Shown in pieces: positions 2,861 through 63,368 of a DNA stretch of 64,000 bases. The translations under genes were made by a program, and so were the position numbers. Within the stretch, counting starts at the first letter, position 1; every line of letters begins with the position of its first letter. Origin of the DNA: Minisyncoccia bacterium (GTDB lineage Bacteria; Patescibacteriota; Minisyncoccia; Phycocordibacterales; UBA9973); the NCBI GenBank assembly GCA_039809265.1, contig JBDHUR010000001.1, positions 5,914 through 69,913 of the forward strand. Reading direction: 5' to 3'. The notes beneath the pieces are model-generated. The model searched no databases, was not told where the DNA came from, and worked only from the letters and a program-made list of their open reading frames with translations.

Positions 2861-3985
2861 TTATTTCTTCAGGATTTCAAGCGCCGGTAACGATCCGTCT
2901 GCCAAGAAGTCTATGGTAGCTCCGCCCCCCGTGGAAACAAAGCCGACTTTGTCCATGAGTTTCAGCCTTGAGATTACCTCTACTGTATCCCCGCCGCCTA
3001 CTATACGCACCGCTTTGCTTCTCGCCAGCATTTTTAGCAACGCTTTTGTTGCAGCAATATTTTCTCCTTTGCCAAGCGGGCCGTTCCAGACTATCATTTT
3101 TGCTTTTTTTACATAAGTTTCAAGCAAAGCTAAACTCATATGGCCCATGTCTACTATCGTATCGTCTTTCTTTACTTCGTCGAGCCCGATTTCTCTTTTG
3201 CTGTTTTTATTTTCTACCAGCAAGTCTACCGGCAAGAGCAAGTTTGGCTTCTTTGCTATTTTTTCCAAGCCTTTTACATCTTCGTCTATCAAAGACTTTC
3301 CTATCTCGTATCCTTCTATCCTGAAAAAGTTGTGTGCCAGCGCACCACCGACAAAGACTTGGTCTGCGATTACTATAAAGCGTTTCAGCAGCGGCAGCTT
3401 CGTATCAAACTTTGCTCCGCCTAGGATGAAAAGAAAAGGATGCCGTACTTTTTCATATGCCTTGGAAAGTTCGGAAACTTCCGCCTCGCATTGCAAGCCA
3501 AGCAGGGCGGGCAGAAACTTTGGCACACCAACCAAAGACGCGTGTTTTCTGTGCGAAACAGAAAAAGCTTCGTTCACATACACATCTGCCAAGTTTGCCA
3601 GGGCTTTTGCAAAGTTTTTGTCATTTGCCATTTCACCTTTTTCTCTGCGGACATTTTCCAACAAAAGCGCATCACCATTTTTCATCTTTGCTACTTTTTC
3701 TGTAACACTCGCGCCAATAACTTCTTTTGAAAAATCTATTTTGAACTTCTTGTTTAAATATTTGCGCACAACAGCCAAGCTCTCTTTCCCATCTGTACCC
3801 ATATGCGACACAACTACTATTTTTGCACCTTTTTTCCGCAAATACTCAAGGGTGGGCAGTGTTGCATCTATCCGAAATGTGTCTTTTATTTTTCCATTTG
3901 CATCAACAGGCACGTTGAAATCCGCGCGCACCAAGACACGTTTGCCCTTCCAGCCTTTCATGCTCTTCAATGTCTTATACTTCAT
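2861..3985 (-). CDS. pgk: Phosphoglycerate kinase
   Basis: 374 aa; N-term 'RADFNVPVD' and C-terminal 'GGGD' PGK signatures. Confidence 0.9.
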   Translation of the reverse strand: MKYKTLKSMKGWKGKRVLVRADFNVPVDANGKIKDTFRIDATLPTLEYLRKKGAKIVVVSHMGTDGKESLAVVRKYLNKKFKIDFSKEVIGASVTEKVAKMKNGDALLLENVRREKGEMANDKNFAKALANLADVYVNEAFSVSHRKHASLVGVPKFLPALLGLQCEAEVSELSKAYEKVRHPFLFILGGAKFDTKLPLLKRFIVIADQVFVGGALAHNFFRIEGYEIGKSLIDEDVKGLEKIAKKPNLLLPVDLLVENKNSKREIGLDEVKKDDTIVDMGHMSLALLETYVKKAKMIVWNGPLGKGENIAATKALLKMLARSKAVRIVGGGDTVEVISRLKLMDKVGFVSTGGGATIDFLADGSLPALEILKK

Positions 3986-5583: not shown

Positions 5584-6222
5584 CTAGAATTTCTTTAAGA
5601 GGTATGTGGATAACTGGCCATTGTCTATAACCTTGTCGTATGGAAAGTCAAGTATGTCGCGTACCAGCTTGTCATACATGTTGAGCCTATATATAAAGTC
5701 CTCTGTGGTAAAAACGGCGTATGCAAGCTCTTTACCGATCTCTGCTTCCAGGCTTTTTATCGTCTGCTCTAGGTAACCGCGTTTCAAATTGTCGCCAACC
5801 AGTAAAAAGTCTACTCTGCTTTCTTCATCCTTGCGGAAAACTCCGGATGTGAGCAAGAGCTTCACTTTGCCTGCCGGCTTAAACCTGTCTACCAAGTCTT
5901 CCCTTTTCATAAAGTCTGCATCTATGAGGAAGTTTTTCATTTGCGAAAGGTATTCAAAATTTGGATTTAGCATCCAGCCAGAAACTTTCTTTGCGCGAAC
6001 TTTTTTGGAACGAGAATTTGAGATTTCTTTCATGAAAGACTTGCGTTTGATAAAACCAAAGGATGCAAGGCCTGCTACTTCTTTGCGCGCAGCTGCGCCA
6101 GAGACGCGGCTGCGCGCCGTCACATCCTTGACTTCAAAACCACGGTCCGGATTTAGTAAGAAAAGACGCATGATCCTGACTTTTGCCACTCCGCCAAAAA
6201 GTTTTCCAAGTATCTCTACCAT
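5584..6222 (-). CDS. Hypothetical basic cytoplasmic protein
   Basis: 212 aa intact ORF, Lys/Arg-rich, no recognised motif. Confidence 0.45.
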   Translation of the reverse strand: MVEILGKLFGGVAKVRIMRLFLLNPDRGFEVKDVTARSRVSGAAARKEVAGLASFGFIKRKSFMKEISNSRSKKVRAKKVSGWMLNPNFEYLSQMKNFLIDADFMKREDLVDRFKPAGKVKLLLTSGVFRKDEESRVDFLLVGDNLKRGYLEQTIKSLEAEIGKELAYAVFTTEDFIYRLNMYDKLVRDILDFPYDKVIDNGQLSTYLLKKF

Positions 6223-6254
6223 GGGGGTATTTTAGCATTTTTAGGGAAATAACA

Positions 6255-6292
6255 AAGCCCGCCCGGCTGACGTACGCCAGCCGGGCGGGCTT
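6255..6292 (-). terminator. Hairpin terminator downstream of rplL
   Basis: aagcccgcccggctg-acgtacg-ccagccgggcgggctt GC-rich inverted repeat. Confidence 0.5.
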
Positions 6293-6316
6293 CTTTTCTG
6301 CCTTAGGAAAACAAGC

Positions 6317-6685
6317 TTATTTTAGCTCTACTTTTCCGCCAGCTTCTTCTATTTTCTTCTTTATATCTTCTGCTTCTGCTTTCTTCATACCGTCTTTCAA
6401 AGTAGCCGGAGCGCCATCCACAAGGTCCTTTGCCTCTTTCAAGCCAAGACCTAGAGCCTCTTTAACCACCTTCATAACGCCTATCTTGCTTTCACCTGCG
6501 GACGCAAGCACAACTGTAAAGCTGTCCTTTTCTTCTGCGCCACCCGCCGCAGCACCAGCTGCAGGAGCAGCAGCCACAGCTGCCGCAGAAACACCAAACT
6601 TTTCTTCTATCGCCTTTACTAGGTCATTAAGCTCAAGCACTGAAGCACCTTCAAGCTCTGTCAAAAATGAATCAAATTTTGCCAT
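6317..6685 (-). CDS. rplL: 50S ribosomal protein L7/L12
   Basis: 122 aa; Ala-rich hinge then '[22 protein letters not shown]' C-terminal domain. Confidence 0.9.
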
Positions 6686-6738
6686 AAATAATTTAATTAA
6701 GAATTAATAATCAACAATTTAGAATTGGGAACACAAAG

Positions 6739-7224
6739 CTACTTTGTTTTTGCTACTTCGCCGACTGCAATAGCCAAGCGCTGCATCGGAGATTTGAGTA
6801 AGTATGCAATCTGCGAAAGCAAGACTTCTCTTGGAGGGATGTTTGCTATCTCTAGCATTTTTGTTGCATCCATGTATTTTCCTTCGAAAACTCCGCCGAC
6901 TATGCGCAAACTGTCTTTGTGGTCTTTAGCAAAAGACTGTACCCCGCGTGCAGGAGCCAAAAGGTCCGCCGCGTATGCTATAGCTATCTCGCCATCAAGC
7001 ACAGGCATCTCTCCTTCTATCTTCTTTGCATCCAGAGCTCTTTTTAGCAATGTCTTCTTTGTAACCTTGTAAAGCACATTGTCTTTTTGGAGTTCGCGCC
7101 TCAAAGTGTTGGAGTCCTTCACTGTCAGTCTGTTAAAAGCAACAAAGACTATAGACTCTGCACCCTTCACTGCTTCGCCGAATTCTTTTACCAATTCAAC
7201 TTTCTTTTCTTTTTTAAGTGCCAT
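6739..7224 (-). CDS. rplJ: 50S ribosomal protein L10
   Basis: Start at MALKKEKKVELV (internal to ORF 6739..7383); L10 family, immediately upstream of rplL. Confidence 0.85.
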   Translation of the reverse strand: MALKKEKKVELVKEFGEAVKGAESIVFVAFNRLTVKDSNTLRRELQKDNVLYKVTKKTLLKRALDAKKIEGEMPVLDGEIAIAYAADLLAPARGVQSFAKDHKDSLRIVGGVFEGKYMDATKMLEIANIPPREVLLSQIAYLLKSPMQRLAIAVGEVAKTK

Positions 7225-7383
7225 AACTATGTATGTATGTGTAAAAATAAAATCGACCCAAAGGCCGACAAAAAGATGAAACCGCAAAATACGGTTTTCG
7301 CCTCGTGAGGATTTGTGCGTATCCGCTACCCCATTTCTACAGCCTTGCGGGAATATATTAGCAGAATGAAAGAGCCTTGTCAA
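7225..7383 (-). promoter_or_regulatory. Possible rplJL leader / L10 autoregulatory region
   Basis: Untranslated region in-frame with rplJ ORF extension; established L10(L12)4 leader regulation in other bacteria; not verified structurally. Confidence 0.3.
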
Positions 7384-7596
7384 ACACTATTGCACAGCGT
7401 CCAGCTGGCTTTGCTGAGTTTTACCTGTCGGAGATTTTTCCACTTCACCGCTGACGAAAAGAAGCGCAATGCCAAGCATAATCATGACTATAAACATAGT
7501 GATAACTTTGAAAAAATGCTGGTTGAACATACAAACATCTTACCATAAAACAAAACCGCTTGGCACATGCAAGCGGTTTTGTTAGATTATGCTTTA

Positions 7597-9072
7597 TTAC
7601 TGTATCACATCCCAAGTTATTTCTACACGTCCAGGTTGTCCATCTTCTCCTGAGTAATAAGGTAATTGTCCTATGCAAGGGGCTGGGGTTGTTCCGCCGC
7701 CACCTCCAGTGTTACCGCCACCTCCAGTGTTACCGCCACCTCCAGTAGTCCCTCCACTACTACCACCATCTCCACCATCTCCATCTTCTCCAGGATTATT
7801 ACCCGTAGCCACAATTACAGAAGTAAGTTGCGAGCTCTTTCCATTATTTTTAATAGCTTGTGTATTAGTGTAACCCCCGCCCCCACCACCAATACCGCCT
7901 TTTCCATATATATTTCCACTACCTCCAAGACCTGCCGAACCTCTAGGACCAAAGATAACACAAGAATTAAGTATACTTCCATAAACATTAATCATAGAAC
8001 CAGAACTTCCAGAAAGTCCAGCACTTTGACCTGCAATACCGGCTCCTGCAATACCAGCATTACTACCACTTGTACATGGACTAGAATTTGATATTATCCC
8101 ACCATAAGTGTATGTGTAACATAAATATTTTACCTTGCTATTGGGTTGAGTTGCTATAAAATGTAAATCCCCACCCCTACCACCACCACCACCAGAAACA
8201 CTTTTATTTCCAACACTCGTGCTACCTCCGTCAGCTCCATTTTGACCTAAATAGAAATTAGCATTTCCTCCACCCGCACCAGCCAGAAAGTCTTGTATAA
8301 TTTTTCCACCTGCTCCTGGGCTACCAACAACGATAGAAATTGGACCTGAATTGTTTGGTATAGAAAATTGCTCATATGCGCCACCACCACCGCCGCCGCC
8401 TGAAGGGAAGGAAGTACCATCAGCATACCAAGCACTCCAAGTTTTTATATTACCATTATCAACGTTGGGATATGATGGAGCTGCATAATTTCCACCTCCA
8501 CCTCCAGCACCCCACATCTTAACTACAATATTTTTCGCATTTACAGGTGGAGTAAAATTATTTGGTGAAGAATTTCCAAGCGAACCGGAAGTAACCTGTA
8601 CACCATTTGCTATAGTATATATTTGTGTCTGTGGAGTTGCAGTAGGATCAGGTGGTGTTTGCTGACACAATACAAGTTTACCACTACTATCAGCACAGAC
8701 TTGATTACTTTCACTGTTAGTCAAAGTACTGACGTATGTGTTGCCATTTATTCGTAAATCAGAAGTGATATTTGGCAAACCTGTACCGGTTCCACCAGCA
8801 GCCAAACCTACAAATGTATTACCTAAAAGATAAGAATTTCTCCAAGACATAAATACACCAGAAGATCCCGCCACTGCTAGGCCTCCATACTTTGTTTGGT
8901 TTATAGGGCTGACATTTAGCGGAGCTTGTGGATTACAAGAAGAAGGGTTTGTACAACCAGATGGCGGTGGTGCCCACGAACCAGTAGATTGCGCAGAAAC
9001 AAATAGTGTTCCCGCTCCAACAAGTATTGCTACTGTTAAAACTTTTACTGCTTGGATAAATTCTTTTTTCAT
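7597..9072 (-). CDS. Secreted glycine-rich repeat protein (signal peptide; poly-Gly blocks; C-terminal GGGGNT repeats)
   Basis: 491 aa; N-terminal 'MKKEFIQAVKVLTVAILVGAGTLFVSAQS'; many GGGGG tracts; low complexity. Confidence 0.6.
   Translation of the reverse strand: MKKEFIQAVKVLTVAILVGAGTLFVSAQSTGSWAPPPSGCTNPSSCNPQAPLNVSPINQTKYGGLAVAGSSGVFMSWRNSYLLGNTFVGLAAGGTGTGLPNITSDLRINGNTYVSTLTNSESNQVCADSSGKLVLCQQTPPDPTATPQTQIYTIANGVQVTSGSLGNSSPNNFTPPVNAKNIVVKMWGAGGGGGNYAAPSYPNVDNGNIKTWSAWYADGTSFPSGGGGGGGAYEQFSIPNNSGPISIVVGSPGAGGKIIQDFLAGAGGGNANFYLGQNGADGGSTSVGNKSVSGGGGGRGGDLHFIATQPNSKVKYLCYTYTYGGIISNSSPCTSGSNAGIAGAGIAGQSAGLSGSSGSMINVYGSILNSCVIFGPRGSAGLGGSGNIYGKGGIGGGGGGYTNTQAIKNNGKSSQLTSVIVATGNNPGEDGDGGDGGSSGGTTGGGGNTGGGGNTGGGGGTTPAPCIGQLPYYSGEDGQPGRVEITWDVIQ
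7694..7750. repeat. 18-bp tandem repeat (~2.7 copies) ccgccacctccagtgtta inside the Gly-rich gene
   Basis: Direct reading: two perfect and one diverged unit, encoding GGGGNT x3 on the minus strand. Confidence 0.8.
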
Positions 9073-9114
9073 AATAATGATAATATTACTTGATAAATTT
9101 TTAATAATAATTTA

Positions 9115-9462
9115 CTAACAAGAGAAAAGCTTACCGTTACCATCTGCACAGACTCCTCTTTCGCCTGTGCCAGAAAGACTATTCACATACATATTGCCGT
9201 TTACTCGAAGCTCCGCAGATGGACCGCCCAATGAAGAAGATCCGATATATGTAGAACCCCCAAAAAGATACGATTGTCCGAATGTTACAAACTGACTTGT
9301 ATTTTTTGCCACCTCTAAACCTCCTGCCTTTATTTGTGAGTTTGATCCTGTATTTATAAGTGCAGACTGTGCAGTAGAAAACTGTGCTTGCAGGTATTTT
9401 GCGCCAAAACCGATAAATAATCCGAGTGCAATAAGTATGGTTGTAGATAATGCTTTTTTCAT
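9115..9462 (-). CDS. Small secreted protein, paralog of the N-terminal domain of the Gly-rich protein
   Basis: 115 aa, signal peptide; shared motifs 'LRVNGNMYV...VCADGNGKL' vs 'LRINGNTYV...VCADSSGKL'. Confidence 0.5.
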   Translation of the reverse strand: MKKALSTTILIALGLFIGFGAKYLQAQFSTAQSALINTGSNSQIKAGGLEVAKNTSQFVTFGQSYLFGGSTYIGSSSLGGPSAELRVNGNMYVNSLSGTGERGVCADGNGKLFSC

Positions 9463-9478
9463 AATAATAATTTTACGA

Positions 9479-11239
9479 TTAAAACTCTATAAATATCGGC
9501 TTTTTAGGTCCAGATGGGCCAGGTGGCCATGGAGTATCATCTCCAATAACTTTAACATATACCCTGTCTGTAAGATATCCACCAGAAGTTGTGCCAGATG
9601 TACCTGTAGGACAGTCTATTTGAAATATTGTGTTACCTGTTATGGCGAAAGGTCCTTCTGTGCCGCTCGGATTTCTTGTACCAGACCAAGTGTTATTGGA
9701 AGAATAAACAGTACACATGCTAAATATGTCTGTGGTATTCCATTGTAAATCAACACTTCCTCCACCCAGTGGGAGCTGGATAGCTGTTGTGAATGTATGA
9801 GCACCCACAAAACTACTTGTTCCGGTTTTCTTCCCTTCTAAGTTTAATGCTGGATGTAAATCTTGCGACGCGCGTATTGCAATAACTGTATTTGAAAATA
9901 CATCTATATGGTTATCAGGATCAACACATTTCATCTGATAAGTCGTTGTGCTTGAAACGGACCCAGCGAGTAAATAGAAACTCTTTGGTGTAGAATAGGT
10001 TGTTGTAGGATTTGGTTGAAGAAAAGCACCGTTATCCCAATCTTGTGTTGTTCCAGTACCAGAAACAGCTTCACAACCAACAAGACCGTTTGCTCCGGTA
10101 ATATTTGATTTCCATGCTAATTTTGCATATGTAGAATTATAAGGATATGTTTGAGAAACAGTACCTCCTGATCCACAACTAGGAGAAAGTAGTCCCGTTG
10201 AATCTGTTATACAAAGCTCAAGTGTCTTATCTGTTTGTGGCCAAGAAACAAAAGTATCTGCATGCATAGTGTTGCCATCAGCATCAAAACAATCTACACG
10301 GAAATGGGTGTCTTGATACGGAACAAAGACTGAGCCGACAGTGCGAGTTATGTTTGCTCCGGAAAGAGTAAGCAGGTTTCCCGTCCAGTTTGGTACTGCT
10401 TGTGAAGCACCTGTAATATTGTCTACAGCCATTCCTCCAGCACACGAAGTATAGTTCACTCCCGGGTCAGTAGAATACGTAAGCGACGTATAGTGGCTTG
10501 TACTTGCACCAGTGTTATTCAGATAAAGTGTAAGCGGTACATCTTGTGGATCTTCTGGCTCAGGATCGCCTTCGTACTTCACACCAGACATGTCTATCCA
10601 TCCAGGACCAACGTATTTATCTATACCAAGAGCTGACTCACCCACAGTTCCCACGACATCTGCACTCCAAGCATATCCAGAAAATGGATAGTTAGTAGAG
10701 CCAGCTGGAGATGGAGTAGTGGACATTACCACATTTCTGCTTGTGCCATCAAAGGAAACCCAGCCATCCCAGCCGCCAGAGTTTGTGCCTGTGGCACCAG
10801 CACAGCCTGTCGGAGTTACAGCAGGAGCACAGAACCTTGCCCAGCCTATTATCCTTTGGTTTCCGGGGTTGCCGACTATGCGAGCATTTATTGCTGTAGC
10901 TGTCGGGTCCGTAGTTGGGAAGCCGGATAGTCCGCCAAACTTCAGCCAGCCCACATTGTCCGTACCAGCCACAGAGTCCCGAGGGTTTGCCCAAGCGTAG
11001 CCGTGCAGGAAACCATTACTGTCCACAGTAACTTTGTAGTTTGATCCGGTGCAACCGCTAGCGGTTTTGCAGTTGAAGCTGATAGTGCCAAAGTTCGCCG
11101 AGTACGCACTGCCAGAGAGTTCTGGTATAGCAGCCACAGTTATCTGCGCGTCTGCCACCTTTGTGTATCTTGAAAGACCGATGCCAGAGACAGCAAGCGC
11201 GAGAAGTGCAAATATGATGTATCCTTTCTTGATCTTCAT
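9479..11239 (-). CDS. Large secreted protein of unknown function (Thr/Gly/Ser-rich, likely beta-rich surface protein)
   Basis: 586 aa; signal peptide 'MKIKKGYIIFALLALAVSGIGL'; no enzymatic motif. Confidence 0.6.
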   Translation of the reverse strand: MKIKKGYIIFALLALAVSGIGLSRYTKVADAQITVAAIPELSGSAYSANFGTISFNCKTASGCTGSNYKVTVDSNGFLHGYAWANPRDSVAGTDNVGWLKFGGLSGFPTTDPTATAINARIVGNPGNQRIIGWARFCAPAVTPTGCAGATGTNSGGWDGWVSFDGTSRNVVMSTTPSPAGSTNYPFSGYAWSADVVGTVGESALGIDKYVGPGWIDMSGVKYEGDPEPEDPQDVPLTLYLNNTGASTSHYTSLTYSTDPGVNYTSCAGGMAVDNITGASQAVPNWTGNLLTLSGANITRTVGSVFVPYQDTHFRVDCFDADGNTMHADTFVSWPQTDKTLELCITDSTGLLSPSCGSGGTVSQTYPYNSTYAKLAWKSNITGANGLVGCEAVSGTGTTQDWDNGAFLQPNPTTTYSTPKSFYLLAGSVSSTTTYQMKCVDPDNHIDVFSNTVIAIRASQDLHPALNLEGKKTGTSSFVGAHTFTTAIQLPLGGGSVDLQWNTTDIFSMCTVYSSNNTWSGTRNPSGTEGPFAITGNTIFQIDCPTGTSGTTSGGYLTDRVYVKVIGDDTPWPPGPSGPKKPIFIEF

Positions 11240-11240
11240 T

Positions 11241-11564
11241 TTAACGAGAATTTAACTTATTAAAAATGTCGGTCTTTTGCTCGTCTGTAAGATTGTTGCC
11301 AGACCATTGCTCTTCTTGTGAATGTTGTATCACGGCTTGCTGGTCTGCCTCTGAGTATTCTGGCGCTGGATACATAGCTTCTGCCTGCTCTATGACTTGC
11401 TGCTTTTGCTCGTCTGTAAGTTCTTGGCCGGAGTTTACACCGCGAGAAACTTTCTGATGTTCATATCTGTACCAAAAAACGCCAAGCAAGACCACAAGCA
11501 CCAGCACAAAAAGTGAAATGGCTAGGTTACGTGAAGCATGCGGATGTGAAGGAATAGGTTCCAT
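11241..11564 (-). CDS. Small single-TM protein with repeated 'LTDEQK' motif
   Basis: Start at MEPIPSHP; one hydrophobic helix; Gln/Glu-rich tail with internal repeats. Confidence 0.45.
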   Translation of the reverse strand: MEPIPSHPHASRNLAISLFVLVLVVLLGVFWYRYEHQKVSRGVNSGQELTDEQKQQVIEQAEAMYPAPEYSEADQQAVIQHSQEEQWSGNNLTDEQKTDIFNKLNSR

Positions 11565-11747
11565 ACAAATATATAGTATCATTTCTTTTGGGCAGAGGAA
11601 GAAAAACATTGTGGATAAATGCGCGAGAAAAAGTTTTTGACTTTTCTGCGTTTTTTTGATAGCATAGTGAACATCAAGTCGGTCGCGAACCCGACTTTTT
11701 TTAATAAAATTTAATACTGCCTGCCTACGCAGGAAACAATAAAATAT

Positions 11748-13043
11748 ATGTTAGACCTAAAAACAATGAAATCTGCTCTTGAACAGCTTGAAGAAGAGCG
11801 AAAAATACCAAAAGAAAAGATCATAGAAGCCATAGAACAAGCACTTGCTGCTGCCTACAAGAAAGACTACGGTAAAAAAGGCCAGATAATCCGCGCAAAA
11901 TTTGATACAGATACAGGAAAAACAGACTTCTACCAAGTAAAGATAGTGGTAGACGACACTACTGCACGCATACCTAAAGACGGCGAAAGCGAGGAAGAAA
12001 TGCCAGAGGAGGTAGAGGGAGACGACCGTGTACGCTTCAATCCAGAGCACCATATACTGCTGGAAGATGCGAAGATAATGAAAAAGGACGCCGAAGTAGA
12101 AGACGAAATGATATTCCCTCTTGAAGGCAAAGACGATTACGGCCGCATTGCTGCCCAGACGGCAAAGCAAGTTATCATACAGCGTATCCGCGAAGCAGAA
12201 CGCGGCGCAGTGATAGACGAATACGGCACAAAGGAGGGCGAGATAATAAACGGTATAGTATCAAAAGTAGAGAGAGGCAATATATATGTAGACTTCAACC
12301 GAGCTTCAGGCGTAATACCTTTTGAAGAGCAAATCCCGGGCGAACACTACCGTCGAGGCGACAGAATAAAGGCTTATCTCTACGCAGTAGAGGAATCTCC
12401 TCGTGGAGTAAACTTGCGCCTGTCCCGCAGCCACCCGAAACTTATAGAAAAACTTTTTGCAATGGAAGCACCAGAAATAGCCAGCGGCGTGGTAGAGATA
12501 AGGTCCATAGCTCGCGAAGCTGGTTCCAGAAGCAAAATAGCAGTTGCCACCAACGACGAACACATAGACCCAGTCGGCGCATGTGTGGGACAAAAAGGTG
12601 TCAGAGTAACAACAGTTATGAATGAGTTAAACGGAGAAAAGATAGACATCATACCTTGGTCTGAAGACCCGATGACATTTGTAGCCAACTCTCTGTCCCC
12701 AGCAAAAGCTCTTGATATAGAGATAAACGAAGACGAACGCAAAGCATCTATAGAAGTGGCAGACGACCAGCTTTCCCTAGCTATCGGCAAAGGCGGACAA
12801 AATGTACGACTTGCAGCAAAGCTAACTGGCTGGAGAATAGACATCAAAGGCATAAAGGGAGAAGAAATGGATAGCGATGAAGACATAGCAGACGATGACG
12901 AAGGATTTGTAAAGCTCTCTGACCTGAAAGAAGATGCGGGAGAAAACGTCGCGGACGAAGATAACACGGAAACAGAAGCTATCGCGGACGAGATGATGGC
13001 AAGCGAGCCAGAAGTAGAAGTAACAGAGGAAAAAGAAGAATAA
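11748..13043 (+). CDS. nusA: Transcription termination/antitermination factor NusA
   Basis: 431 aa; N-terminal domain, S1, two KH motifs (GxxG: 'GQKGVRV', 'IGKGGQNVRLA'), acidic C-terminal tail. Confidence 0.85.
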   Translation: MLDLKTMKSALEQLEEERKIPKEKIIEAIEQALAAAYKKDYGKKGQIIRAKFDTDTGKTDFYQVKIVVDDTTARIPKDGESEEEMPEEVEGDDRVRFNPEHHILLEDAKIMKKDAEVEDEMIFPLEGKDDYGRIAAQTAKQVIIQRIREAERGAVIDEYGTKEGEIINGIVSKVERGNIYVDFNRASGVIPFEEQIPGEHYRRGDRIKAYLYAVEESPRGVNLRLSRSHPKLIEKLFAMEAPEIASGVVEIRSIAREAGSRSKIAVATNDEHIDPVGACVGQKGVRVTTVMNELNGEKIDIIPWSEDPMTFVANSLSPAKALDIEINEDERKASIEVADDQLSLAIGKGGQNVRLAAKLTGWRIDIKGIKGEEMDSDEDIADDDEGFVKLSDLKEDAGENVADEDNTETEAIADEMMASEPEVEVTEEKEE

Positions 13044-14884: not shown

Positions 14885-15925
14885 ATGAAAATAGACATAA
14901 AGAAACTAGAAAAAAGCCAGGTAGAAATAACTGGAGAGATTGGGGCAGAAAAATTCGCTTTGTACCGCCCACAAGCTGTAGAGATAATAGGCAAAGACAT
15001 AGAAGTAGACGGCTTCCGCAAAGGCAAAGCTCCAGCGGAAATCATAGAAAAGAAAATACTCCCTTCTGCAATACTAGAGGAAATGGCCGAGCTTGCCATT
15101 AGCGAAGCATATCCAAAGATATTGAAAGAGAACAAGATAGACGCCATCGGCAGACCGGAAGTACTCATAACAAAGCTTGCTCTGGACAACCCTTTGGGCT
15201 TCAAGATAGTAACCGCTGTCATGCCGGAAGTTAAACTTGGCGACTACAAAAATGCTTGGAAAAAAGTAAAACAAGAAAATGCTGAGCCGGCTACCGACAA
15301 AGAAGTAGAAGATGCGATACTTGAAGTCCGCCATATGCGCGCACACAACGAACTTCATAAAAATGATAAACCGGGCGAGCACACTCCGCACGACCCAATA
15401 AAAGACGAAGACTTGCCAGAGCTGACAGACGAATATGTACAAAGCTTTGGCCCATTTAAAACGGTAGACGAATTTCGGGCAAAGATGAAAGAAAATCTTA
15501 CTTTAGAAAAAGCCGACAGAGCAAAAAGCAAATCTCGCGCAGAACTTGTAGAGGAACTTTTGAAAGATGCCGAGCTTGATGTACCGCAAGTCATCATTGA
15601 CTCTGAGATAGATAAAACTATATTCAAAGTGAAAACTGATGTAGAACAAGCTGGCATAAAATACGAGGACTACCTAAAACAAATAAACAAAAAGGATGAG
15701 GAAATCCGCACAGAAATCGCTCCTGATGCTGAAAAACGAGCAAAGCTAGAAATAGTTTTGCAAGCTATTGCAGAAAAGGAAAACCTAAAGCCAGATGAGA
15801 AAGCAGTAGAAGAGCAAGTCTCACATCTGCTAGAACACTACAAAGGCGCAGACCCAATTCGTACCAAAGTTTACATAGAGACGATAATGAAAAACGAGCT
15901 GGTCTTCAACTTCTTGGAGAAGTAA
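14885..15925 (+). CDS. tig: Trigger factor, short form lacking the FKBP/PPIase domain
   Basis: 346 aa; N-terminal ribosome-binding signature 'VDGFRKGKAP'; upstream of clpP as in tig-clpP operons; too short for a PPIase domain. Confidence 0.75.
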   Translation: MKIDIKKLEKSQVEITGEIGAEKFALYRPQAVEIIGKDIEVDGFRKGKAPAEIIEKKILPSAILEEMAELAISEAYPKILKENKIDAIGRPEVLITKLALDNPLGFKIVTAVMPEVKLGDYKNAWKKVKQENAEPATDKEVEDAILEVRHMRAHNELHKNDKPGEHTPHDPIKDEDLPELTDEYVQSFGPFKTVDEFRAKMKENLTLEKADRAKSKSRAELVEELLKDAELDVPQVIIDSEIDKTIFKVKTDVEQAGIKYEDYLKQINKKDEEIRTEIAPDAEKRAKLEIVLQAIAEKENLKPDEKAVEEQVSHLLEHYKGADPIRTKVYIETIMKNELVFNFLEK

Positions 15926-26898: not shown

Positions 26899-28230
26899 TT
26901 AATTCTTGGCGAATTTTTTAGAAAGTGTTTTACTTTTATCTTCTATAAGAAGTGTATAAACTCCGGGTAGCAGGTCACTCACATTCAAACTATTTACTGC
27001 AACAGACTTCTTAATAAAAGAACCCTTTGCATCATAAACAGTAAGAGAAGCCTTGTCGGAAATACCTGACACATACAATACATCTGTGGTCGGATTCGGA
27101 TATACCAACACTTGGGGCAGAGCGTTTTGTAATTGCGTAAGACTTGTAGTAGAAGACAAAGACAGGAGCAGATTTATCCCAGACTGAGCAGGGAAATAGT
27201 TTGCTATTGGGCAAGCAATATCTTGCTTGCCGTCACCATTGTAGTCCGCGATGCAAAGCGAATGCACCGGCAAGACAAATGAGTACTGAGAAGCGAACAA
27301 AGTCCCATTACCAGACTTATCTGCAATAGTTATACCGCTGTTACTGACAAATACAAACTCTTTTGTGCCGTCTGCATCCAAATCTACTACGGAAATATCG
27401 TTTGCATCGTAAGCAGTGGATGGTAAGGGACTTATGTTGGGAGTAGTATTTTGTCCCAAACTGAACTCGTACAAACTTCCAGATGAAGCAGCATACAACT
27501 TGCCATCACTCACAGTGTAAGACGCTATATTGCCGAGTGAGTAAGCGGTTAAAACATTACCAGCAAAATCTTGCTCTATGATACCGCTTGGCGTCCGCGC
27601 AAATATCTGACTACCATAGAACACAAAGTCGTCTCGCCATTCGGGTGTCACTATCTCTGTGATCGTAAACCCAGCGGCAGAAGGCTCTGCCAGAGAATAC
27701 GATGGTGTATAGATTGGGAGTTGAAAATGAGAGATTAAGATCTTCCCAGTTGCTTCATCTATAGCAAAGTTTTCTGTAGTACGGTTTGCATGGTAAGTAT
27801 TTACTTGCCCAAAAGTTCCATTTGGATTTTGGTAAGAAATACCTATAGAGTCATACAAGTTCAGCACCACATCCTGCAGGCCATCTCCATCGTAATCATG
27901 AAGACCTATGTCGTGGGTTACGCTATTGTACAGCTGGCTCTGAGGAGAAGGTACATATGAATACGATCCCGAAAGAGAGAAGCCGCCTTGGCCATCTCCG
28001 AGTAAAACATTGAAACGAAAATCCGTTGCAAAGTTTATTAGACCCGAGTAGCTGTTGTTGAACACGATGTCCATACGGCCATCGGCATTTATATCTTTAG
28101 CTATCATACCCTCGGGGCGTGTGCCGGAAGATATAAACGTGGTGCCATAAGTCTGCGCAAATGCTTTTGCAAAGAATACAGTGCAAAGATAAAGCGCAAT
28201 AAATAGCAGGAGAAATACTTTCTTTTTCAT
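26899..28230 (-). CDS. Secreted FG-GAP/VCBS-repeat protein with T9SS-type C-terminal sorting domain-like tail
   Basis: 443 aa; signal peptide; repeats 'DINADGRMDIV','HDYDGDGLQDVV','VDLDADGTKEFVF','ADYNGDGKQDIA'; C-term 'VYPNPTTDVLYV...LTVYDAKG...LLPGVYTLLIEDKSKT'. Confidence 0.6.
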   Translation of the reverse strand: MKKKVFLLLFIALYLCTVFFAKAFAQTYGTTFISSGTRPEGMIAKDINADGRMDIVFNNSYSGLINFATDFRFNVLLGDGQGGFSLSGSYSYVPSPQSQLYNSVTHDIGLHDYDGDGLQDVVLNLYDSIGISYQNPNGTFGQVNTYHANRTTENFAIDEATGKILISHFQLPIYTPSYSLAEPSAAGFTITEIVTPEWRDDFVFYGSQIFARTPSGIIEQDFAGNVLTAYSLGNIASYTVSDGKLYAASSGSLYEFSLGQNTTPNISPLPSTAYDANDISVVDLDADGTKEFVFVSNSGITIADKSGNGTLFASQYSFVLPVHSLCIADYNGDGKQDIACPIANYFPAQSGINLLLSLSSTTSLTQLQNALPQVLVYPNPTTDVLYVSGISDKASLTVYDAKGSFIKKSVAVNSLNVSDLLPGVYTLLIEDKSKTLSKKFAKN

Positions 28231-49252: not shown

Positions 49253-49654
49253 TTGATTTATGAAATGGAGTATACTATAGGCATGCGAAGGCTTTTATTT
49301 GTATTATTTTTCTTTGTTTTAGTATTTACTACTATCATCGGTCAAGCAATGGCCGCTGGGGCATCTCTTGGCATCCCGATCGGCGGGCTTATAACGACTA
49401 CTAATGTACCACCCAATGTTATCTGCTCAACGGGTATAGGGCCGATAACTATCAAGGTTGCTGGTAAAGGTAGCACTAGCCCATACCTAGCCACCTTTGC
49501 AGGGAATAGAACACCGCAAAATCAAGCCTCATCTGGCCGTTGGTTCCTTGGTCTTTACCAGCCTGGGTTAGGTTGCGTCCAAGAAAATGGCCCTGAGTCT
49601 CATCCATACCCCACACTAAATTGGATAATATATGGGGTTTCTGGAATGAAATAA
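49253..49654 (+). CDS. Small secreted protein
   Basis: 133 aa; signal peptide 'LLFVLFFFVLVFTTIIGQAMA'. Confidence 0.45.
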   Translation: MIYEMEYTIGMRRLLFVLFFFVLVFTTIIGQAMAAGASLGIPIGGLITTTNVPPNVICSTGIGPITIKVAGKGSTSPYLATFAGNRTPQNQASSGRWFLGLYQPGLGCVQENGPESHPYPTLNWIIYGVSGMK

Positions 49655-49656
49655 AC

Positions 49657-50595
49657 ATGCATTCATATTTGCCCAGTAAAAAATTCGTGCAGACATTCCT
49701 TATTCTTGCAGCTGTTTTTATAATCGGCTACTTTTTGTACCACATAGTTTTCAAAAAAGACGGCAAGATACCTTTCATTTCCGGTAATAAAGATTCTTCG
49801 GCTAAACTGGAGACCAAAGAAATAGTACTGCAAGACTTGATGGAAAAGGACACGGACGGAGATGGTATAAAAGACTGGGAGGAAGCACTCTGGGGCACAG
49901 ACCCAGAAAAATCAGACACGGACGGAGATGGTATTTCCGATTTTGACTATATAGAAAAGCGCCGCGAGGAAGTGCGCCAAGCTTCAGGCACTCCCGACCA
50001 AGAACTCTCAGATACCAATGCTACAGACGTTTTTACCAAGGAATTCTTTGCTGCGATAGTGGCGCTGCAACAGTCCGGCCAGCTGAACAGCCAAACACTT
50101 GCCGACCTTTCCAAACAACTTGCGGGTAACATTGGCCAGCAAAAGAGCTTGCCAGACATTTATAGCATCACGGATATAAAAATTGTATCTAACCCATCGC
50201 GAGCAGATATGCAAATATACGGCCAAGCAGTACAAGCCATGAGCAGCTCGTATTTTGCTAAAGGCATAGGCACAGAGCTGGATGTAACTTCAAATGCGCT
50301 AAGCACTGAAGACCCTGCTGAATATGCCAAGATTGCCAGCATTGCAAATGCTTATGCCGACTTTGCTGGAAAACTTGTCGCGCTCCAAACACCCGAAGAT
50401 ATAAGCGTGGATGTATTGAACCTTGCCAATAACATGCAGAAGTCCGCCAAAGCTTTGCAAAATATTTCCGCCATTCCAACCAATGAGCTGATAGGCATCA
50501 TCGGCATAAGCCAGTACAGCACATATAGCGACGACATGGTTAACTCGTTCACAAGTTTATCTAACTACTTGCAAAATAATGGTATACTGCAATAA
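49657..50595 (+). CDS. Membrane-anchored protein with thrombospondin-type-3-like Ca-binding repeats
   Basis: Start at MHSYLPSKK; TM 'FLILAAVFIIGYFLY'; repeats 'DTDGDGIKDWEE','DTDGDGISDFD'. Confidence 0.5.
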   Translation: MHSYLPSKKFVQTFLILAAVFIIGYFLYHIVFKKDGKIPFISGNKDSSAKLETKEIVLQDLMEKDTDGDGIKDWEEALWGTDPEKSDTDGDGISDFDYIEKRREEVRQASGTPDQELSDTNATDVFTKEFFAAIVALQQSGQLNSQTLADLSKQLAGNIGQQKSLPDIYSITDIKIVSNPSRADMQIYGQAVQAMSSSYFAKGIGTELDVTSNALSTEDPAEYAKIASIANAYADFAGKLVALQTPEDISVDVLNLANNMQKSAKALQNISAIPTNELIGIIGISQYSTYSDDMVNSFTSLSNYLQNNGILQ

Positions 50596-50598
50596 GTA

Positions 50599-53325
50599 AT
50601 GCAAAGATACAAAAGAAAATTACATACTGCGCTATCTCTTGTACTAGGAATATCTGTCTTTGCGCAAAGCTTTATTGCAATCATAACACCACAGACAGCA
50701 TACGCGCAAAATGCTAGTGCGAGCGCCTTTGCTGGACTAGGTTCCATCGCCGGAGCAGGAGTTGGCTGTCTTTTGGGTAATGCTTTCTCAGGAACCGGAC
50801 TCTTTAGCTCTGCTGACGGAAACACAACTGCGGGAATGGAAGTACCTACTGGAGACAAGGGGACTAGAGGAAATACTAGCGCACAGAAACAAAAAGAAAA
50901 CTGCCTAGACGCCATAGCTTATGCTGCAGCAAAAGCTTTACTGAAAAAATTTACTCAAGCTACTATAGTCTGGATAAACAGCGGTTTTAAAGGCGAGCCT
51001 CTGTATATAAAAAATCCTGAGTCATTTTTTAAAAGCATAGCGAACGAACAACTGGGTGGAATTATTTCCACATTAAGCAATACAGACAAGGTTCCATTTG
51101 GTAAAGACTTAGCAAGAAGCATTATCCTCTCCACGCAAGCAACTTTTGCAAAAAAGATTGAATACAATTTAAATAAAATAATAAGTCCAGATAGGGTGTA
51201 TCGTTTTCAAGCAGACTTTTCTGCTGGAGGCTGGGACGGCTGGTTAGGAGCGACCCAATTCCCACAAAACAATACTATCGGGGCACACATCGTAACCGCA
51301 GACGAGGTTACATATAAACTCTCTGGTACAGCTAAAGCGCCCGCCGAATATTTACAAGATGAATTAAGTCAAGGTATGGGATTTCTTGGACTAAAGAAGT
51401 GCGTTCAAACTTCAGATGGAAAAACAGCTGCCGACTATAATTACGAAGAATCAACAAATGAATCAATAGAAGACATAGATCCAAAAAAAATCACATGTAC
51501 TCGTTGGGAAACAATTACCCCTGGAACAGCTATTGCAAACCAAATGAACCTAACATTAGGCACATCTCAGCGACAACTAGAACTTGCAGATGAGCTAAAT
51601 GAAAGTATTGCTGGGGTATTTGATGCTCTTTTTAGTCAACTTTTAAACAAAGGTCTAGCCTCTTTGGGCAACAGCTCTTCTTCTAGTGGATATAATGTGG
51701 GTATCTATGGTGGTTATGGAAACAACTCTAATAACTCTAGCCTAAATAGTAACGGTAACCCATACGGGGTAGAGGATCCAGACCAATGGTATAACCAAAA
51801 CCCTACATTTAATATTTGGCATGACCTACAGACTATTATAGACGTTCAGCAAAAAGTCTACGATGATCTTCAAAAAGAAAATTCTGCATTACAAAATCTT
51901 ACAACTGCAATATATGAACTAGACTTTTGTGTGCCTGGACCAAACCCACTATGGTACGATAACGCGCAACAAACAGTAAACGATTTCTTTGGAGATATCC
52001 CTCAAAAGGCTGATGATCTTGGAGATAAGTTACGAAAAGCAAATAAATGGTTTGACCCAGGGGGTATGGTTATGGCTTCTACAGGCTGGGCAAACGAACT
52101 AGGTTTAAACCCACCAGGGTCAAACGGCTGGTCTCAACAAAGAATACAAGAACTGTATGCAAAATTCCTAAAGCAAGCCATAAACTTCTCTGGCGAAGAT
52201 GACGAAACAATGACCTCAGAACATATATCTTCTTTGGGTAGCATTGTGCTTGAACAATATGCTTCAAAAATAAGCTCAAAATACGGCGTATCTGGCTTAC
52301 ACCAAGCTGGAGAATATATGCCGACAGTGGCAGCAAGCTTGCCAAAGCTATACAACAACATACCTAGATACTTAAACCAAATTGACACCAACAACACAAA
52401 GATGGATGACTTTGAAGGTATTATCCGCCAACTTCAATCTATAAGCGTTGCGGTTAAAGATATCCCAGAGGACCCAGACAACCAAACAAGTGCCGACAAA
52501 ACCGCAATAACTACATATCTAAGAATTATAGGTAGCATGGCACAATATATGGCAAGCGAAAGTGTTATACAAACACTGGAAGACGAACTATTTGCTATAA
52601 ATGGCATATACGACATGGTGGCAAATGGAAATAATAGCTTGATAAATCAATGCAAGACAGAACTACGCACAACAAGTCCGACTGGAATAGACTCTTCTAA
52701 TATAAAAGGTTTACGTTTTGCTTACCCTACAGACTTGTTGCCACAGTCTATACAAGATGCATACACAGGCAACCTTGGTGGATATATGACACATCAAATG
52801 TACAAATTCGGTACTTCATATCTTCCGGGAACTTTCTACAAGAGCAATGTAAAGCAGACTAGCTGGCAGTGGCCTTCCCTAGACTCATTAACACACCAGT
52901 ATGATATGAGATCATATTTTACACCAAGCTTTTCTCAAAAATCTGCATTATACGATCAACGAGCGGGTAAATATAACCCAGATATTCCAGGACTATGGGC
53001 ATGGTGCACGGCAGAAGGATTCCAATACACAACAGTAGTAAATAATGCAGTTCAAGCAACAAATCTTGGAATACAATTAGGGCAATCGTACACATTTACG
53101 ATACCAGCGCCGTCCAATAATTCAGGCTTTGGAACAACTCCAGCTCTTTGTAATCCTAGTTTACCTGACAACAATGGTACGGTGATAAAAAACGACCCTA
53201 ATATTAGTGACTTTACATTAAATAGAGCGCTAGACTTTATAGATGTTACAAGTTCTGGTTTGCAAGTTAATAGACCGGACCAAACTAACCTTGCTGGATT
53301 CGAATCATTCCTTGGAATTTATTGA
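50599..53325 (+). CDS. Large (908 aa) secreted protein, first gene of the T4SS-like block
   Basis: Signal peptide 'LSLVLGISVFAQSFIAIITPQTAYAQNASA'; Asn/Gly/Ser-rich; no enzymatic motif. Confidence 0.55.
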   Translation: MQRYKRKLHTALSLVLGISVFAQSFIAIITPQTAYAQNASASAFAGLGSIAGAGVGCLLGNAFSGTGLFSSADGNTTAGMEVPTGDKGTRGNTSAQKQKENCLDAIAYAAAKALLKKFTQATIVWINSGFKGEPLYIKNPESFFKSIANEQLGGIISTLSNTDKVPFGKDLARSIILSTQATFAKKIEYNLNKIISPDRVYRFQADFSAGGWDGWLGATQFPQNNTIGAHIVTADEVTYKLSGTAKAPAEYLQDELSQGMGFLGLKKCVQTSDGKTAADYNYEESTNESIEDIDPKKITCTRWETITPGTAIANQMNLTLGTSQRQLELADELNESIAGVFDALFSQLLNKGLASLGNSSSSSGYNVGIYGGYGNNSNNSSLNSNGNPYGVEDPDQWYNQNPTFNIWHDLQTIIDVQQKVYDDLQKENSALQNLTTAIYELDFCVPGPNPLWYDNAQQTVNDFFGDIPQKADDLGDKLRKANKWFDPGGMVMASTGWANELGLNPPGSNGWSQQRIQELYAKFLKQAINFSGEDDETMTSEHISSLGSIVLEQYASKISSKYGVSGLHQAGEYMPTVAASLPKLYNNIPRYLNQIDTNNTKMDDFEGIIRQLQSISVAVKDIPEDPDNQTSADKTAITTYLRIIGSMAQYMASESVIQTLEDELFAINGIYDMVANGNNSLINQCKTELRTTSPTGIDSSNIKGLRFAYPTDLLPQSIQDAYTGNLGGYMTHQMYKFGTSYLPGTFYKSNVKQTSWQWPSLDSLTHQYDMRSYFTPSFSQKSALYDQRAGKYNPDIPGLWAWCTAEGFQYTTVVNNAVQATNLGIQLGQSYTFTIPAPSNNSGFGTTPALCNPSLPDNNGTVIKNDPNISDFTLNRALDFIDVTSSGLQVNRPDQTNLAGFESFLGIY

Positions 53326-53459
53326 GCCTTGTGAGAATAAAAATATATAAATGACCTAGGTTTTCCACCTCATAGACGAGTGAAGTATGGAAAGTAGTGT
53401 TATAATTGAAACGTATTTCTTGCTTTGATAGGCAGTTTCTGTGTACACGAAATATTTTC

Positions 53460-56400: not shown

Positions 56401-56594
56401 GAGCAGTCATGGGTGGACTTAGACAAGTACTTGAATACAGTGGTACCACGAACAGAAGTATTGCAAATGGACACATTCCACACTACCATGGTAGTGGCTC
56501 AACATACAGAGAGCCTAGCGGTGGTGGACAAGACACACCATCGGCATCTTCACACAGTGGAGGAGGTGGAGGAGGGGATCATTCACACCACTAA
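53460..56594 (+). CDS. VirB6/TrbL-like polytopic membrane protein with N-terminal secreted domain and long Lys/Glu coiled-coil C-terminal tail
   Basis: Start at MFKKIVLIATIFG; signal peptide, ~230-aa extracytoplasmic domain, 6-7 TM helices between aa ~245 and 560, ~500-aa hydrophilic tail ending Gly/His-rich. Confidence 0.55.
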   Translation: MFKKIVLIATIFGIFGGLFTPAFSVKAWAEADLQKITISISVNTIQEDKSNGKYSAIIPVVIKSNFKEFGDHTIHLDIYSAAPGGKAEKKVSKEFTPHIDKPKDEFIEQTFLTQTDAVLEKGYGYSAIAFISLPQLAGQTTPGQWIIGPNGIPVVSFPPKTTNTYTPPISNTSIFTIKTDGSTSIANEDSSGTQNTAQNVTSNEPSALPECNILYSSTWPGCIARVIYYIFFIPTSFVFGLSGQFLDWGTSFTIDSNSYKGSAATFIESGWKITRDIANILFIFILLWVGIGTILGSHSVDAKKTIGMVIIIALLLNFSLFFARVIIDASNILAGVFYNQIDVQDEGSNNQWVFSDKNVKNISTAIVSKFNPQKLFAQAGTLKINTGTGVKDGSTDGGTNGEPAPGQFIIITLIMSVINCIGIWVFFSVGFLFLSRVAGLWLAMIFAPLAFISYILPSSSAGALGDMHHSKWWGNLVRLAMMVPMFMFFMYLILMFMNTNFIANAMGDKTTTLAILGVVIPLLIIVVLLQRARKIVVDWSGELGKMAAQAGTAVAGFSVGALTGGAAMLGRGTIGRLANKAASSEELKDRAAKGDRMAKMQLKSAEFLSKSSFDARNTTVGNKVSQATGMNLNKGLSFAGLNTKSTEGGWVGLQAKKAEKEASRWKDSYDHHAYEQEEEKVNAEKEKQSKNKDIKEDIQNKIRVEKAAITTMADGSQEKKDAQRRVQKLTESLSIVDTNIRAYEKGGKTYAINSNGEYVDKNGKVVTDKKDAHMEESLGIQKMEKNKERLKTARQKNHESVLRRKSGKRYLDDERDELGNIKKFGEEITPGLEKKLRKEKDEKNKEKNEALQHRLDIGKDINDVNQKMKEAAKKVSEAQKKGDKALIKSTSDALKGLVEQRKQLEKSQNDAKEKSDTLVKEFNKVSNKLGKVEVANLKTNYNGVRQVLRELGEGAARGAAVGAAVGTAIPGAGTFAGAGVGAVMGGLRQVLEYSGTTNRSIANGHIPHYHGSGSTYREPSGGGQDTPSASSHSGGGGGGDHSHH

Positions 56595-56636
56595 TTCAAC
56601 ACTTGAAAAATGAAAAGTAGGGTATACTAAGAACAT

Positions 56637-57476: not shown

Positions 57477-57493
57477 TAGCTGAAAGCTGCCTT

Positions 57494-57910: not shown

Positions 57911-57939
57911 CAATTAAAAAACAAAATTGGTGATACAAT

Positions 57940-58605: not shown

Positions 58606-58609
58606 CAAC

Positions 58610-60445: not shown

Positions 60446-60491
60446 CAGTTTTCCCTCGTTTTTTTGCTCAAAGTATTTTATACTTAGATAG

Positions 60492-61529: not shown

Positions 61530-61535
61530 AGCAGT

Positions 61536-63365: not shown

Positions 63366-63368
63366 CAG

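Follow-up and report, generated by a model that had tools for sequence, protein, structure and literature searches.

The window analysed here is a stretch of 64,000 nucleotides from a Minisyncoccia bacterium (Patescibacteriota; assembly GCA_039809265.1, contig JBDHUR010000001.1, positions 5,914 to 69,913 of the forward strand), and all positions below count from its first letter. Between positions 7597 and 11609 it carries four consecutive minus-strand open reading frames (ORFs), g122, g586, g115 and g491, with intergenic gaps of 1 nt (g122/g586), 16 nt (g586/g115) and 42 nt (g115/g491). The cluster is divergent from nusA (11748-13043) and has rplJ and rplL downstream of it. A nusA…tpiA/pgk frame is present in the window, with rplJ/rplL and two further genes between g491 and tpiA (flanking genes were named partly through the Pfam labels of orthologous neighbours). 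The GC content of the cluster (~0.40-0.45) is ordinary for the window, and an Rfam search found no structured RNA in or beside it. On balance, the four genes appear to form an operon encoding a chromosomal cell-surface fibre-adhesin cassette typical of Paceibacteria-type Patescibacteria, and as such would be a candidate host-recognition device. The genes and features on which this reading draws are as follows.

11241 to 11609, minus strand: g122, 122 aa, small bitopic membrane protein.
9479 to 11239, minus strand: g586, 586 aa, secreted multidomain protein with a Sec signal peptide at aa 1-32 (cleavage after …VADA, before Q).
10565 to 11122, minus strand: N-domain of g586 (aa 40-225), with the aromatic beta-hairpin pattern G-Y-A-W-S...(I)G-W-I-x-F repeated four times.
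9482 to 9505, minus strand: C-terminal tail of g586, KKPIFIEF, matching the family terminal motif P-x-Φ-x-E-Φ-COOH.
9115 to 9462, minus strand: g115, 115 aa, a secreted protein made of the N-module alone.
7597 to 9072, minus strand: g491, whole ORF, 491 aa.
8665 to 9072, minus strand: N-module of g491 (aa 1-136), a signal peptide followed by conserved motifs.
7600 to 8646, minus strand: C-domain of g491 (aa ~143-491), a predicted TNF-like beta-sandwich interleaved with polyglycine (Gly_rich_2/'TG' type).
7697 to 7746, minus strand: exact 18-bp tandem repeat ACTGGAGGTGGCGGTAAC, 2.8 copies, encoding (T)GGGGN units, polymorphic in copy number.
8572 to 10280, no strand: mosaic (recombination) tract between the window and L005-L008, sharply bounded.

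Three of the four proteins have predicted Sec-type signal peptides with an A-x-A/Q-type end, the slash marking the cleavage site: g491 (…VSA/QS), g115 (…LQA/QF) and g586 (…ADA/QI). The fourth, g122, has a short N-terminal tail, a single transmembrane (TM) helix (LAISLFVLVLVVLLGVFWY) and a Q/E-rich extracytoplasmic tail, with no obvious cleavable signal peptide. The initial annotation had described four consecutive signal-peptide genes making up a cluster of glycine-rich proteins. The gene arrangement stands, while g122 is better read as a membrane anchor than as a protein with a cleavable leader, and only g491 is strongly Gly-rich (22% overall and 26% beyond residue 140, compared with 15.7% in g115 and 11.9% in g586). 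No usable match came from scanning the four proteins directly against Pfam, NCBIfam and PHROGs; there was only weak noise for g122. None of the four N-termini has a class III (prepilin) leader, defined by G/A cleavage, F-T-L-I-E and a hydrophobic helix with Glu5, and the N-module was rejected as a pilin for lack of this leader.

The N-module is shared by g491 and g115. In g491, the signal peptide is followed by the motifs W-x-P-P-P…C-x5-C, A-P-L-N-V-S…Q-T-K-Y-G-G-L and L-R-I-N-G-N and then by a disulfide loop, C126-x9-C136; the protein has eight Cys residues, plausibly paired. The corresponding parts of g115 are a signal peptide, S-Q-I-K-A-G-G-L, a P-x-x-x-L-x-V-N-G loop and the terminal disulfide loop VCADGNGKLFSC. 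The N-terminal region of g491 aligns with g115 over 137 columns at 30% identity (BLASTP E = 2e-13). With the signal peptides removed, the Smith-Waterman score of the pair is 146 against 32.6 +/- 6.4 for 2000 shuffles (z = 17.7), and no shuffle reached 146. Judged by their sequences, the N-domain of g491 and g115 are local paralogues. A local duplication had been proposed at the outset from the shared motifs LR(V/I)NGN(M/T)YV and VCAD(G/S)(N/S)GKL; both are present, and the alignment bears the proposal out.

Glycine words dominated a word-indexed search made with the full-length g491 sequence, and the only protein it yielded was an orthologue of 98% identity, so phmmer was used instead. An exhaustive phmmer search over 1.84 billion representatives found 40 proteins with E <= 1e-3, all of which carry the N-module. 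Their C-domains are Gly-rich in some cases and of other kinds in others, and some of the proteins are short. Within the family the leader has the form MKK..IQ..K(I/V)..L.L..G.G and is usually followed by W-x-x-P-x-x-x-P-P-x-x-N. The core consists of A-P-(I/L)-N-V…Q-x-K-x-G-x-L, a variable stretch and the terminal Cys loop, which reads (V/I)-C-A-D-x-x-G-x-L-(V/I)-x-C in 34 of the 40 proteins. Residues N47, P51, Q59, K61, C126, G131 and C136 are invariant over 18 family members. A hidden Markov model (HMM) of the module matches g491 (E = 3e-33) and g115 (E = 7e-31, a score that is in part circular, since the model includes P0079 and P0080) and nothing else in the window. Neither the N-module profile nor a profile of the g586 family matched any PDB sequence, and full-length g491 had one insignificant hit there.

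Several relatives end after the Cys loop, at 108-146 aa (including P0093, P0104, P0105, P0108, P0112 and P0113). Because these short relatives stop where g115 stops, g115 is a recurrent 'module-only' type of protein and not debris of a longer gene. The ratio of nonsynonymous to synonymous substitution rates (dN/dS) between g115 alleles is 0.12, which indicates purifying selection.

The C-domain of g491 begins with TQIYT…VVKMWGAGGGGG and ends with GRVEITW. The poly-Gly tracts and the C-terminal GGGGNT repeat that were first reported in this part of the protein are real, the repeat being built of an exact 18-bp unit. Residues ~302-440 comprise a lineage-specific insertion that contains two Cys (~303-338) and a Gly/Ser-rich stretch of poor model quality. 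The Pfam family PF21722 (Gly_rich_2) is matched by 9 of 43 N-module family members (best E = 9.9e-15), and P0081 and P0085 are annotated as Gly_rich_2. The syntenic orthologue of g491 in L009 (L009_g449) covers PF21722 positions 8-224 of 226 (E = 2e-4, just under the gathering threshold), and phmmer alignments from g491 reach residues 284-335 of Gly_rich_2-matching proteins. The L005 orthologue, which is 96% identical to g491, has no PF21722 match at E <= 10. An HMM of the C-domain built from relatives, with g491 left out, matches g491 residues 143-414 (71 bits, E = 8e-24, a score carrying heavy glycine compositional bias). It also matches non-glycine landmarks, namely TQIYT…GVQVTSG…F.PP.N.KNIVVKMWGAGGGGG, GGGGGGGAYEQFS, I.VGSPGAGG, GADGGST and the terminal GRVEITW. 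On these alignments the C-domain of g491 is homologous to the PF21722-matching proteins across the domain.

A monomer model of g491 was made with AlphaFold2 (AF2) from a 43-sequence alignment (mean predicted local distance difference test score, pLDDT, 62.5). It is confident at aa 141-190, 221-260, 271-300 and 471-491, dips at ~191-220 and 261-270, and is not confident at 302-436. The top six Foldseek PDB matches of the model are all TG-type proteins; matches include the Bxb1 tail tip (9d93_Qa, E = 2.3e-4), the Pam3 fibre (7ypx and 7yfw, E = 6.5e-3), LTK (7nx1) and ALK (7nx3), with alignments of only ~135 columns and TM-scores of 0.17-0.32 normalised to the target. In Pam3 gp24, the strands of a TNF-like beta-sandwich extend into a glycine-rich lattice that forms the receptor-binding tip, and the combination of TNF-like and glycine-rich fold is common to Pam3 gp24, S16 gp38 and ALK (PMC9608196). 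As modelled, the poly-Gly tracts of g491 are most likely part of a folded, binding-type domain and not of a low-complexity wall protein.

The largest protein of the cluster, g586, has a Trp-rich N-domain, followed by Ig/FnIII-like beta-sandwich domains in tandem and a C-terminal tail that is conserved; the hairpin repeats of its N-domain include GWLKFGGLSGFP and GGWDGWVSF. It is no orphan, as had been supposed, but a member of a widespread family. Database searches found 77 relatives, two of which (P0003 and P0004) align over the full length at 39% identity, while most others align over the first ~30%. The N-domain pattern GWDGW[VI][SAN][FL]xG was found at no fewer than 241 tblastn-confirmed loci in contigs representing one genome per bacterial or archaeal species (at least 241). 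The locus counts given below for this family rest on 79 listed loci of the 241, or 1.2 Mb (L018-L096). Nearly all of the 79 have Patescibacteria titles (Paceibacterota, Nomura-, Kaiser-, Taylor- and Adlerbacteria) or are titled as unclassified bacterium. Together with the genes of the window, these relatives assign the organism to the Patescibacteria (CPR), in a class that is Paceibacteria/Parcubacteria-like. Genes of both the g586 family and the N-module family also lie on L063 (JBLHQB010000009.1), which is titled Patiriisocius sp., a genus of the Flavobacteriaceae; this is probably bin contamination or mislabelling.

The C-terminal tail is kept whatever the length or domain content of the g586-family protein. 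Among the 77 relatives, the penultimate residue is Glu in 59 and position -6 is Pro in 47. A terminal P-x3-E-x$ occurs in 60 of 82 genomic g586-family ORFs, compared with 14 of 1218 background ORFs, and several of those 14 are large neighbours of family genes. A minority of the family has the motif followed by a short hydrophobic extension (e.g. LPEFKEVPPVGFWQILKKLFAGVWRV). From its sequence, the P-x-Φ-x-E-Φ tail looks like an undescribed docking or sorting signal. Some neighbouring proteins that have no match to the g586 N-domain HMM also end in the motif (…PLFPGYVEI).

The first gene of the cluster, g122, is 100% conserved among strains. Since one orthologue begins with MEPIPS (L009) and another is called with a length of 107 aa (L004), the real start of g122 is probably Met16 at window position 11564, which would give a protein of 107 aa, and not the ATG at 11609. 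Its database matches are weak coiled-coil noise and weak hits to an Rz-like spanin (E ~1e-3). By a crude test whose calls include a few false ones, a small TM-like ORF on the same strand immediately precedes the g586-like gene in 30 of 78 loci. Such a g122-like ORF is also upstream in all closer relatives looked at, among them L014, L097, L098, L099 and L100.

The g586-like and N-module genes occur together. The N-module HMM found 73 ORFs in 51 of the 79 g586-family loci, all on the strand of the g586-like gene; 57 of the 73 are downstream of it, and the median gap is 323 bp. Cassette synteny is kept at 39-47% protein identity in L009, L014, L097, L098 and L100. The C-terminal tips vary: among 46 N-module ORFs, Peptidase_S74, an intramolecular chaperone known from phage tail spikes and fibres, was found in 13, Gly_rich_2 in 7, and H_lectin, Collagen and YadA_head in one each.

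In part of the family the cassette adjoins type IV pilus genes. The pilB gene is present in 24 of the 79 loci, always downstream on the same strand, and pilC in 19. ORFs with a pilin-like class III leader were found in 19 of the 79, the canonical KGFTLIE pilins being separate from the cassette genes. The gene order in L099 is nusA, a 95-aa TM protein, a g586-like gene (…KKPRFEEF), a g491-like gene, pilB, pilC, a pilin-like gene, …, tpiA and pgk, and in L016 and L017 the cassette adjoins pilus genes in the same way. The nusA gene is divergently adjacent in 43 of the 79 loci; among the 24 with pilB, this is so in 19. The pilus association therefore represents largely one ancestral nusA...tpiA block, and the observations are not phylogenetically independent.

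Comparison of closely related assemblies showed that the locus varies between strains, as had been suggested at the outset. The four assemblies L001-L004 share ~99.6% identity with the window. In the four-gene locus, all that separates them from it is the loss of one 18-bp unit (6 aa fewer, as in P0001), five substitutions at 8001-9000 and three amino-acid changes in g491. The 18-bp repeat is also the site, at 7717, of breaks in three Logan contigs; heterogeneity was considered as the cause, and k-mer repeat assembly artefacts are more likely.

In a second strain type, L005-L008, the difference from the window lies mainly in the tract at 8572-10280, which spans g586 aa ~320-586, the whole of g115 and g491 aa 1-~167, and contains 30-46 differences per 250 bp (~12-18%). 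Elsewhere in a 16-kb comparison there are 0-1 differences per 250 bp, except for an 11-difference patch at 3501-3750. The synonymous divergence (dS) of the tract is 0.69 in the g586 part, 0.75 in g115 and 0.42 in the g491 part, with dN/dS (omega) of 0.08-0.14, whereas dS in the flanking parts of g586 and g491 is 0.004-0.008. High dS, low omega and sharp bounds together point to the recombinational import of an old, functional allele. Positive selection was rejected as the cause of the tract, given dS of 0.4-0.75 with omega of ~0.1.

An independent tract, at ~6000-9450, marks a third strain type (L010-L013) and overlaps the first tract at 8572-9450, that is, over g115 and the N-module of g491. 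The four-gene locus is the largest divergent stretch over up to ~19 kb compared between near-identical strains. Because two independent tracts overlap here, the locus is the main point of difference among these strains, which fits a surface or host-interaction determinant. The initial annotation had pictured variable cell-surface or S-layer-like proteins. Their secreted, surface-type character and strain variability agree with these results, while the S-layer likeness found no family match; the motif it saw in g491 and g115 aligns significantly, and the locus is not invariant. It had not covered the pairing of g586-family and N-module genes, the link to type IV pilus operons or the C-terminal tail of g586.

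The tract of L010-L013 also covers rplL, rplJ and their upstream intergenic region, so these ribosomal-protein genes were carried along in recombination centred on the surface-protein genes. Clusters of 11-15 substitutions with identical surroundings also occur at 2001-2500, 3501-3750 and 15001-15500 relative to L001/L005, apparently in the region of a recJ-like gene, in pgk and in the trigger factor gene. They suggest further short recombination patches.

The model that we favour builds on the gene structure, paralogy, domain relationships, synteny statistics and strain variation observed directly. From sequences, structural models and synteny we infer that the four proteins are secreted or membrane-anchored partners that interact, form trimeric fibres, act in adhesion and host recognition and cooperate with pili. 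The four genes would be transcribed as one operon, divergently from nusA. The adhesin would be g491, with a Sec signal peptide and the ~110-aa N-module as the common base of the family; a Thr/Pro linker would join this base to a TNF-like/polyglycine 'TG' tip, a domain type that serves as the ligand-binding type in phage fibres (Pam3 gp24) and in ALK/LTK receptors. In the same model, g115 would be a tip-less paralogue of the base module, g586 a secreted stalk or scaffold whose P-x-Φ-x-E-Φ tail probably serves for docking or sorting, and g122 a small membrane-anchored partner. The position of the cassette directly upstream of pilB-pilC-pilin in many relatives, in the nusA-tpiA slot, suggests that it acts alongside type IV pili in attachment to host cells or other surfaces. 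Strain diversity would arise by homologous-recombination replacement centred on g115 and the g491 N-module, together with slippage of the 18-bp repeat in the tip.

The closest known parallel is found in Bdellovibrio bacteriovorus, whose mosaic adhesive trimeric (MAT) fibres start with a signal peptide and a conserved N-domain of ~130 aa and end in tips of the S74, TNF-like or lectin type; the fibres are trimeric and recognise prey surfaces (PMC10769870). Because the N-module is combined with interchangeable tips, the family described here appears to behave like these fibres. The likeness is one of architecture: a Sec signal peptide, a conserved N-terminal domain of ~100-130 aa and a variable part with exchangeable C-terminal tips. 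Multiple paralogues per genome and a life of attachment to other bacteria are further common points. The Patescibacterial proteins are, however, much shorter (115-600 aa vs ~1000 aa), and their genes are paired with those of a g586-family protein and of a small membrane protein, and in many cases also with genes of the type IV pilus. In addition, the tip of g491 is a predicted TNF-like domain fused with polyglycine.

The tip itself resembles the TG domains of Pam3 gp24, the Bxb1 tail tip, S16 gp38 and ALK/LTK, in which segments of the GGGG(G)xGG type break up the strands of the beta-sandwich. The g491 domain opens with a beta-strand and WGAGGGGG and closes with G-x-V-x-I-x-W. In phage proteins and in ALK/LTK, the TG domain binds receptors or ligands (PMC9608196). 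Unlike these domains, that of g491 is below Pfam thresholds and has a ~140-residue poorly modelled Gly/Ser-rich insertion with the polymorphic GGGGNT repeat. It also differs from the phage TG proteins in being chromosomal and predicted to be Sec-secreted, and is not a virion protein.

Several observations weigh against the fibre-adhesin interpretation. The N-module of g491 is modelled with low confidence (pLDDT 51-75). The protein itself has no Pfam hit at E <= 1 and does not reach the PF21722 gathering threshold of 24.3 bits, and the glycine bias noted above affects its C-domain score. The fold assigned to it comes from a model of medium quality, and the Foldseek E-value behind the assignment is modest and covers ~135 columns. 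A tblastn search with PilB and PilC found neither gene in the 64-kb window, many lineages keep the cassette without adjoining pilus genes, and the adjacency seen in the others goes back largely to one ancestral block. The divergent tract gives no direct signal of positive selection (omega 0.08-0.14), and smaller recombination patches occur elsewhere too. Finally, this interpretation leaves the retention of g491 and g115 on the cell unexplained.

The alternative that survives best is that the proteins are dedicated type IV pilus components, i.e. PilY1-like non-pilin tip adhesins or accessory factors, with the g586 tail or the N-module docking minor pilins. PilY1-type adhesins are Sec-secreted non-pilins, as three of the proteins here would be, and pilB-pilC-pilin operons have the cassette at their 5' end in the 24 of 79 loci mentioned above and in L016, L017 and L099. 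A PilY1-like adhesin and 'additional close-proximity adhesins' have been discussed for Saccharibacteria (PMC12206443). With the PilY1/PilC class and the Saccharibacterial type IV pilus host-attachment systems (PMC12206443, PMC9894109) the cassette shares pilB, pilC and minor-pilin neighbours in relatives, Sec-type secretion, a presumed adhesive role and an episymbiont lineage. It differs from them in having no beta-propeller, vWA domain or prepilin leader, in belonging to different, unannotated families, and in having no pilus genes in this window. The missing class III leaders, the persistence of the cassette without pilus genes here and in many relatives, and the phylogenetic non-independence of the adjacency all argue against a dedicated pilus role, and tips such as S74, collagen and YadA head suggest that the fibres are trimeric and autonomous. 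We therefore consider this explanation unlikely.

Somewhat less likely again is an S-layer or cell-wall structure. On this view, an envelope lattice would be made or decorated by the glycine-rich g491 and by g586, a protein with Ig-like arrays and, supposedly, an N-domain that binds the wall. The proteins are predicted to be secreted and are rich in Cys and in Thr, Gly and Ser; g586 has tandem Ig/FnIII-like domains, which are common among S-layer proteins; its aromatic hairpins loosely resemble cell-wall-binding repeats, although this is a resemblance only; and the housekeeping neighbourhood and wide conservation of the cassette would suit a structural role. However, none of the four proteins matches an S-layer homology (SLH) or S-layer family in Pfam or NCBIfam, and the g491 family is rare, with its 40 representatives in 1.84 billion. 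Swappable S74, lectin and YadA-head tips are atypical of lattice proteins, and the Gly tracts lie inside a predicted folded domain of receptor-binding type.

A prophage remnant, with g491 as a phage tail fibre or receptor-binding protein and g115 and g586 as leftover virion or assembly genes, would account for the phage tail-tip and fibre proteins among the best structural matches of the g491 C-domain, for the phage-type Peptidase_S74 chaperone of relatives and for the weak spanin hits of g122 (E ~1e-3), but is highly improbable and was rejected: g491, g115 and g586 have no PHROG matches, the N-module patterns found no relative in 2.9 million IMG/VR viral contigs, the flanking genes are rplJ/rplL and nusA and not virion, integrase or lysis genes, chromosomal synteny is kept at 39-47% identity, the proteins have Sec signal peptides, and the GC content is unremarkable.

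If the fibre-adhesin interpretation is taken further, the cassette could tentatively be viewed as one instance of an undescribed apparatus that is widespread in Patescibacteria, linked to the type IV pilus operon, that sets which host cells are bound; we hold this extension to be possible rather than probable. Such an apparatus would be made up of a small protein anchored in the membrane, a stalk of the g586 family with a new tail signal, and N-module fibres whose phage-like receptor-binding tips are interchangeable. Between strains, exchange of the g586 C-terminus, g115 and the N-module would, along with slippage of the repeat in the tip, shift the range of hosts or help to escape their defences. 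The domain type of the tip is known. Two families, that of the N-module and that of g586 with its tail, appear to be undescribed in the literature searched, and so does their coupling. Little is known of host recognition and attachment by episymbionts of the Patescibacteria/candidate phyla radiation (CPR) beyond type IV pili, and the locus gives testable candidates for these functions. If the interpretation is true, the 'mosaic fibre' strategy of Bdellovibrio extends to Patescibacteria, and the cassette genes would be markers for predicting host range from metagenomes.

Other parts of the window and its surroundings also encode putative surface or secretion proteins. A type IV secretion system (T4SS)-like cluster occupies 49253-64000 and includes a VirB4/TraG-type P-loop ATPase at 58610-60445 (PF19044, E = 5.5e-26), a 609-aa protein with a T4SS_pilin domain at 61536-63365, and large unannotated secreted or membrane ORFs at 50599-53325 and 53406-56594. 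On the minus strand, 26899-28230 encodes a secreted protein of 443 aa in which FG-GAP repeats are combined with a Por_Secre_tail domain (PF18962, E = 1e-10). Por_Secre_tail is a type IX secretion C-terminal sorting domain and is unexpected here, since a Patescibacterium should lack that secretion system; the protein may represent a horizontal acquisition or a re-used domain. A few genes past recJ in L001, L002, L003 and L014, beyond window coordinate 1, is a protein of ~1840-1900 aa with Big_7, CARDB and Glucodextran_B-like domains, which is another giant surface protein near the cassette.

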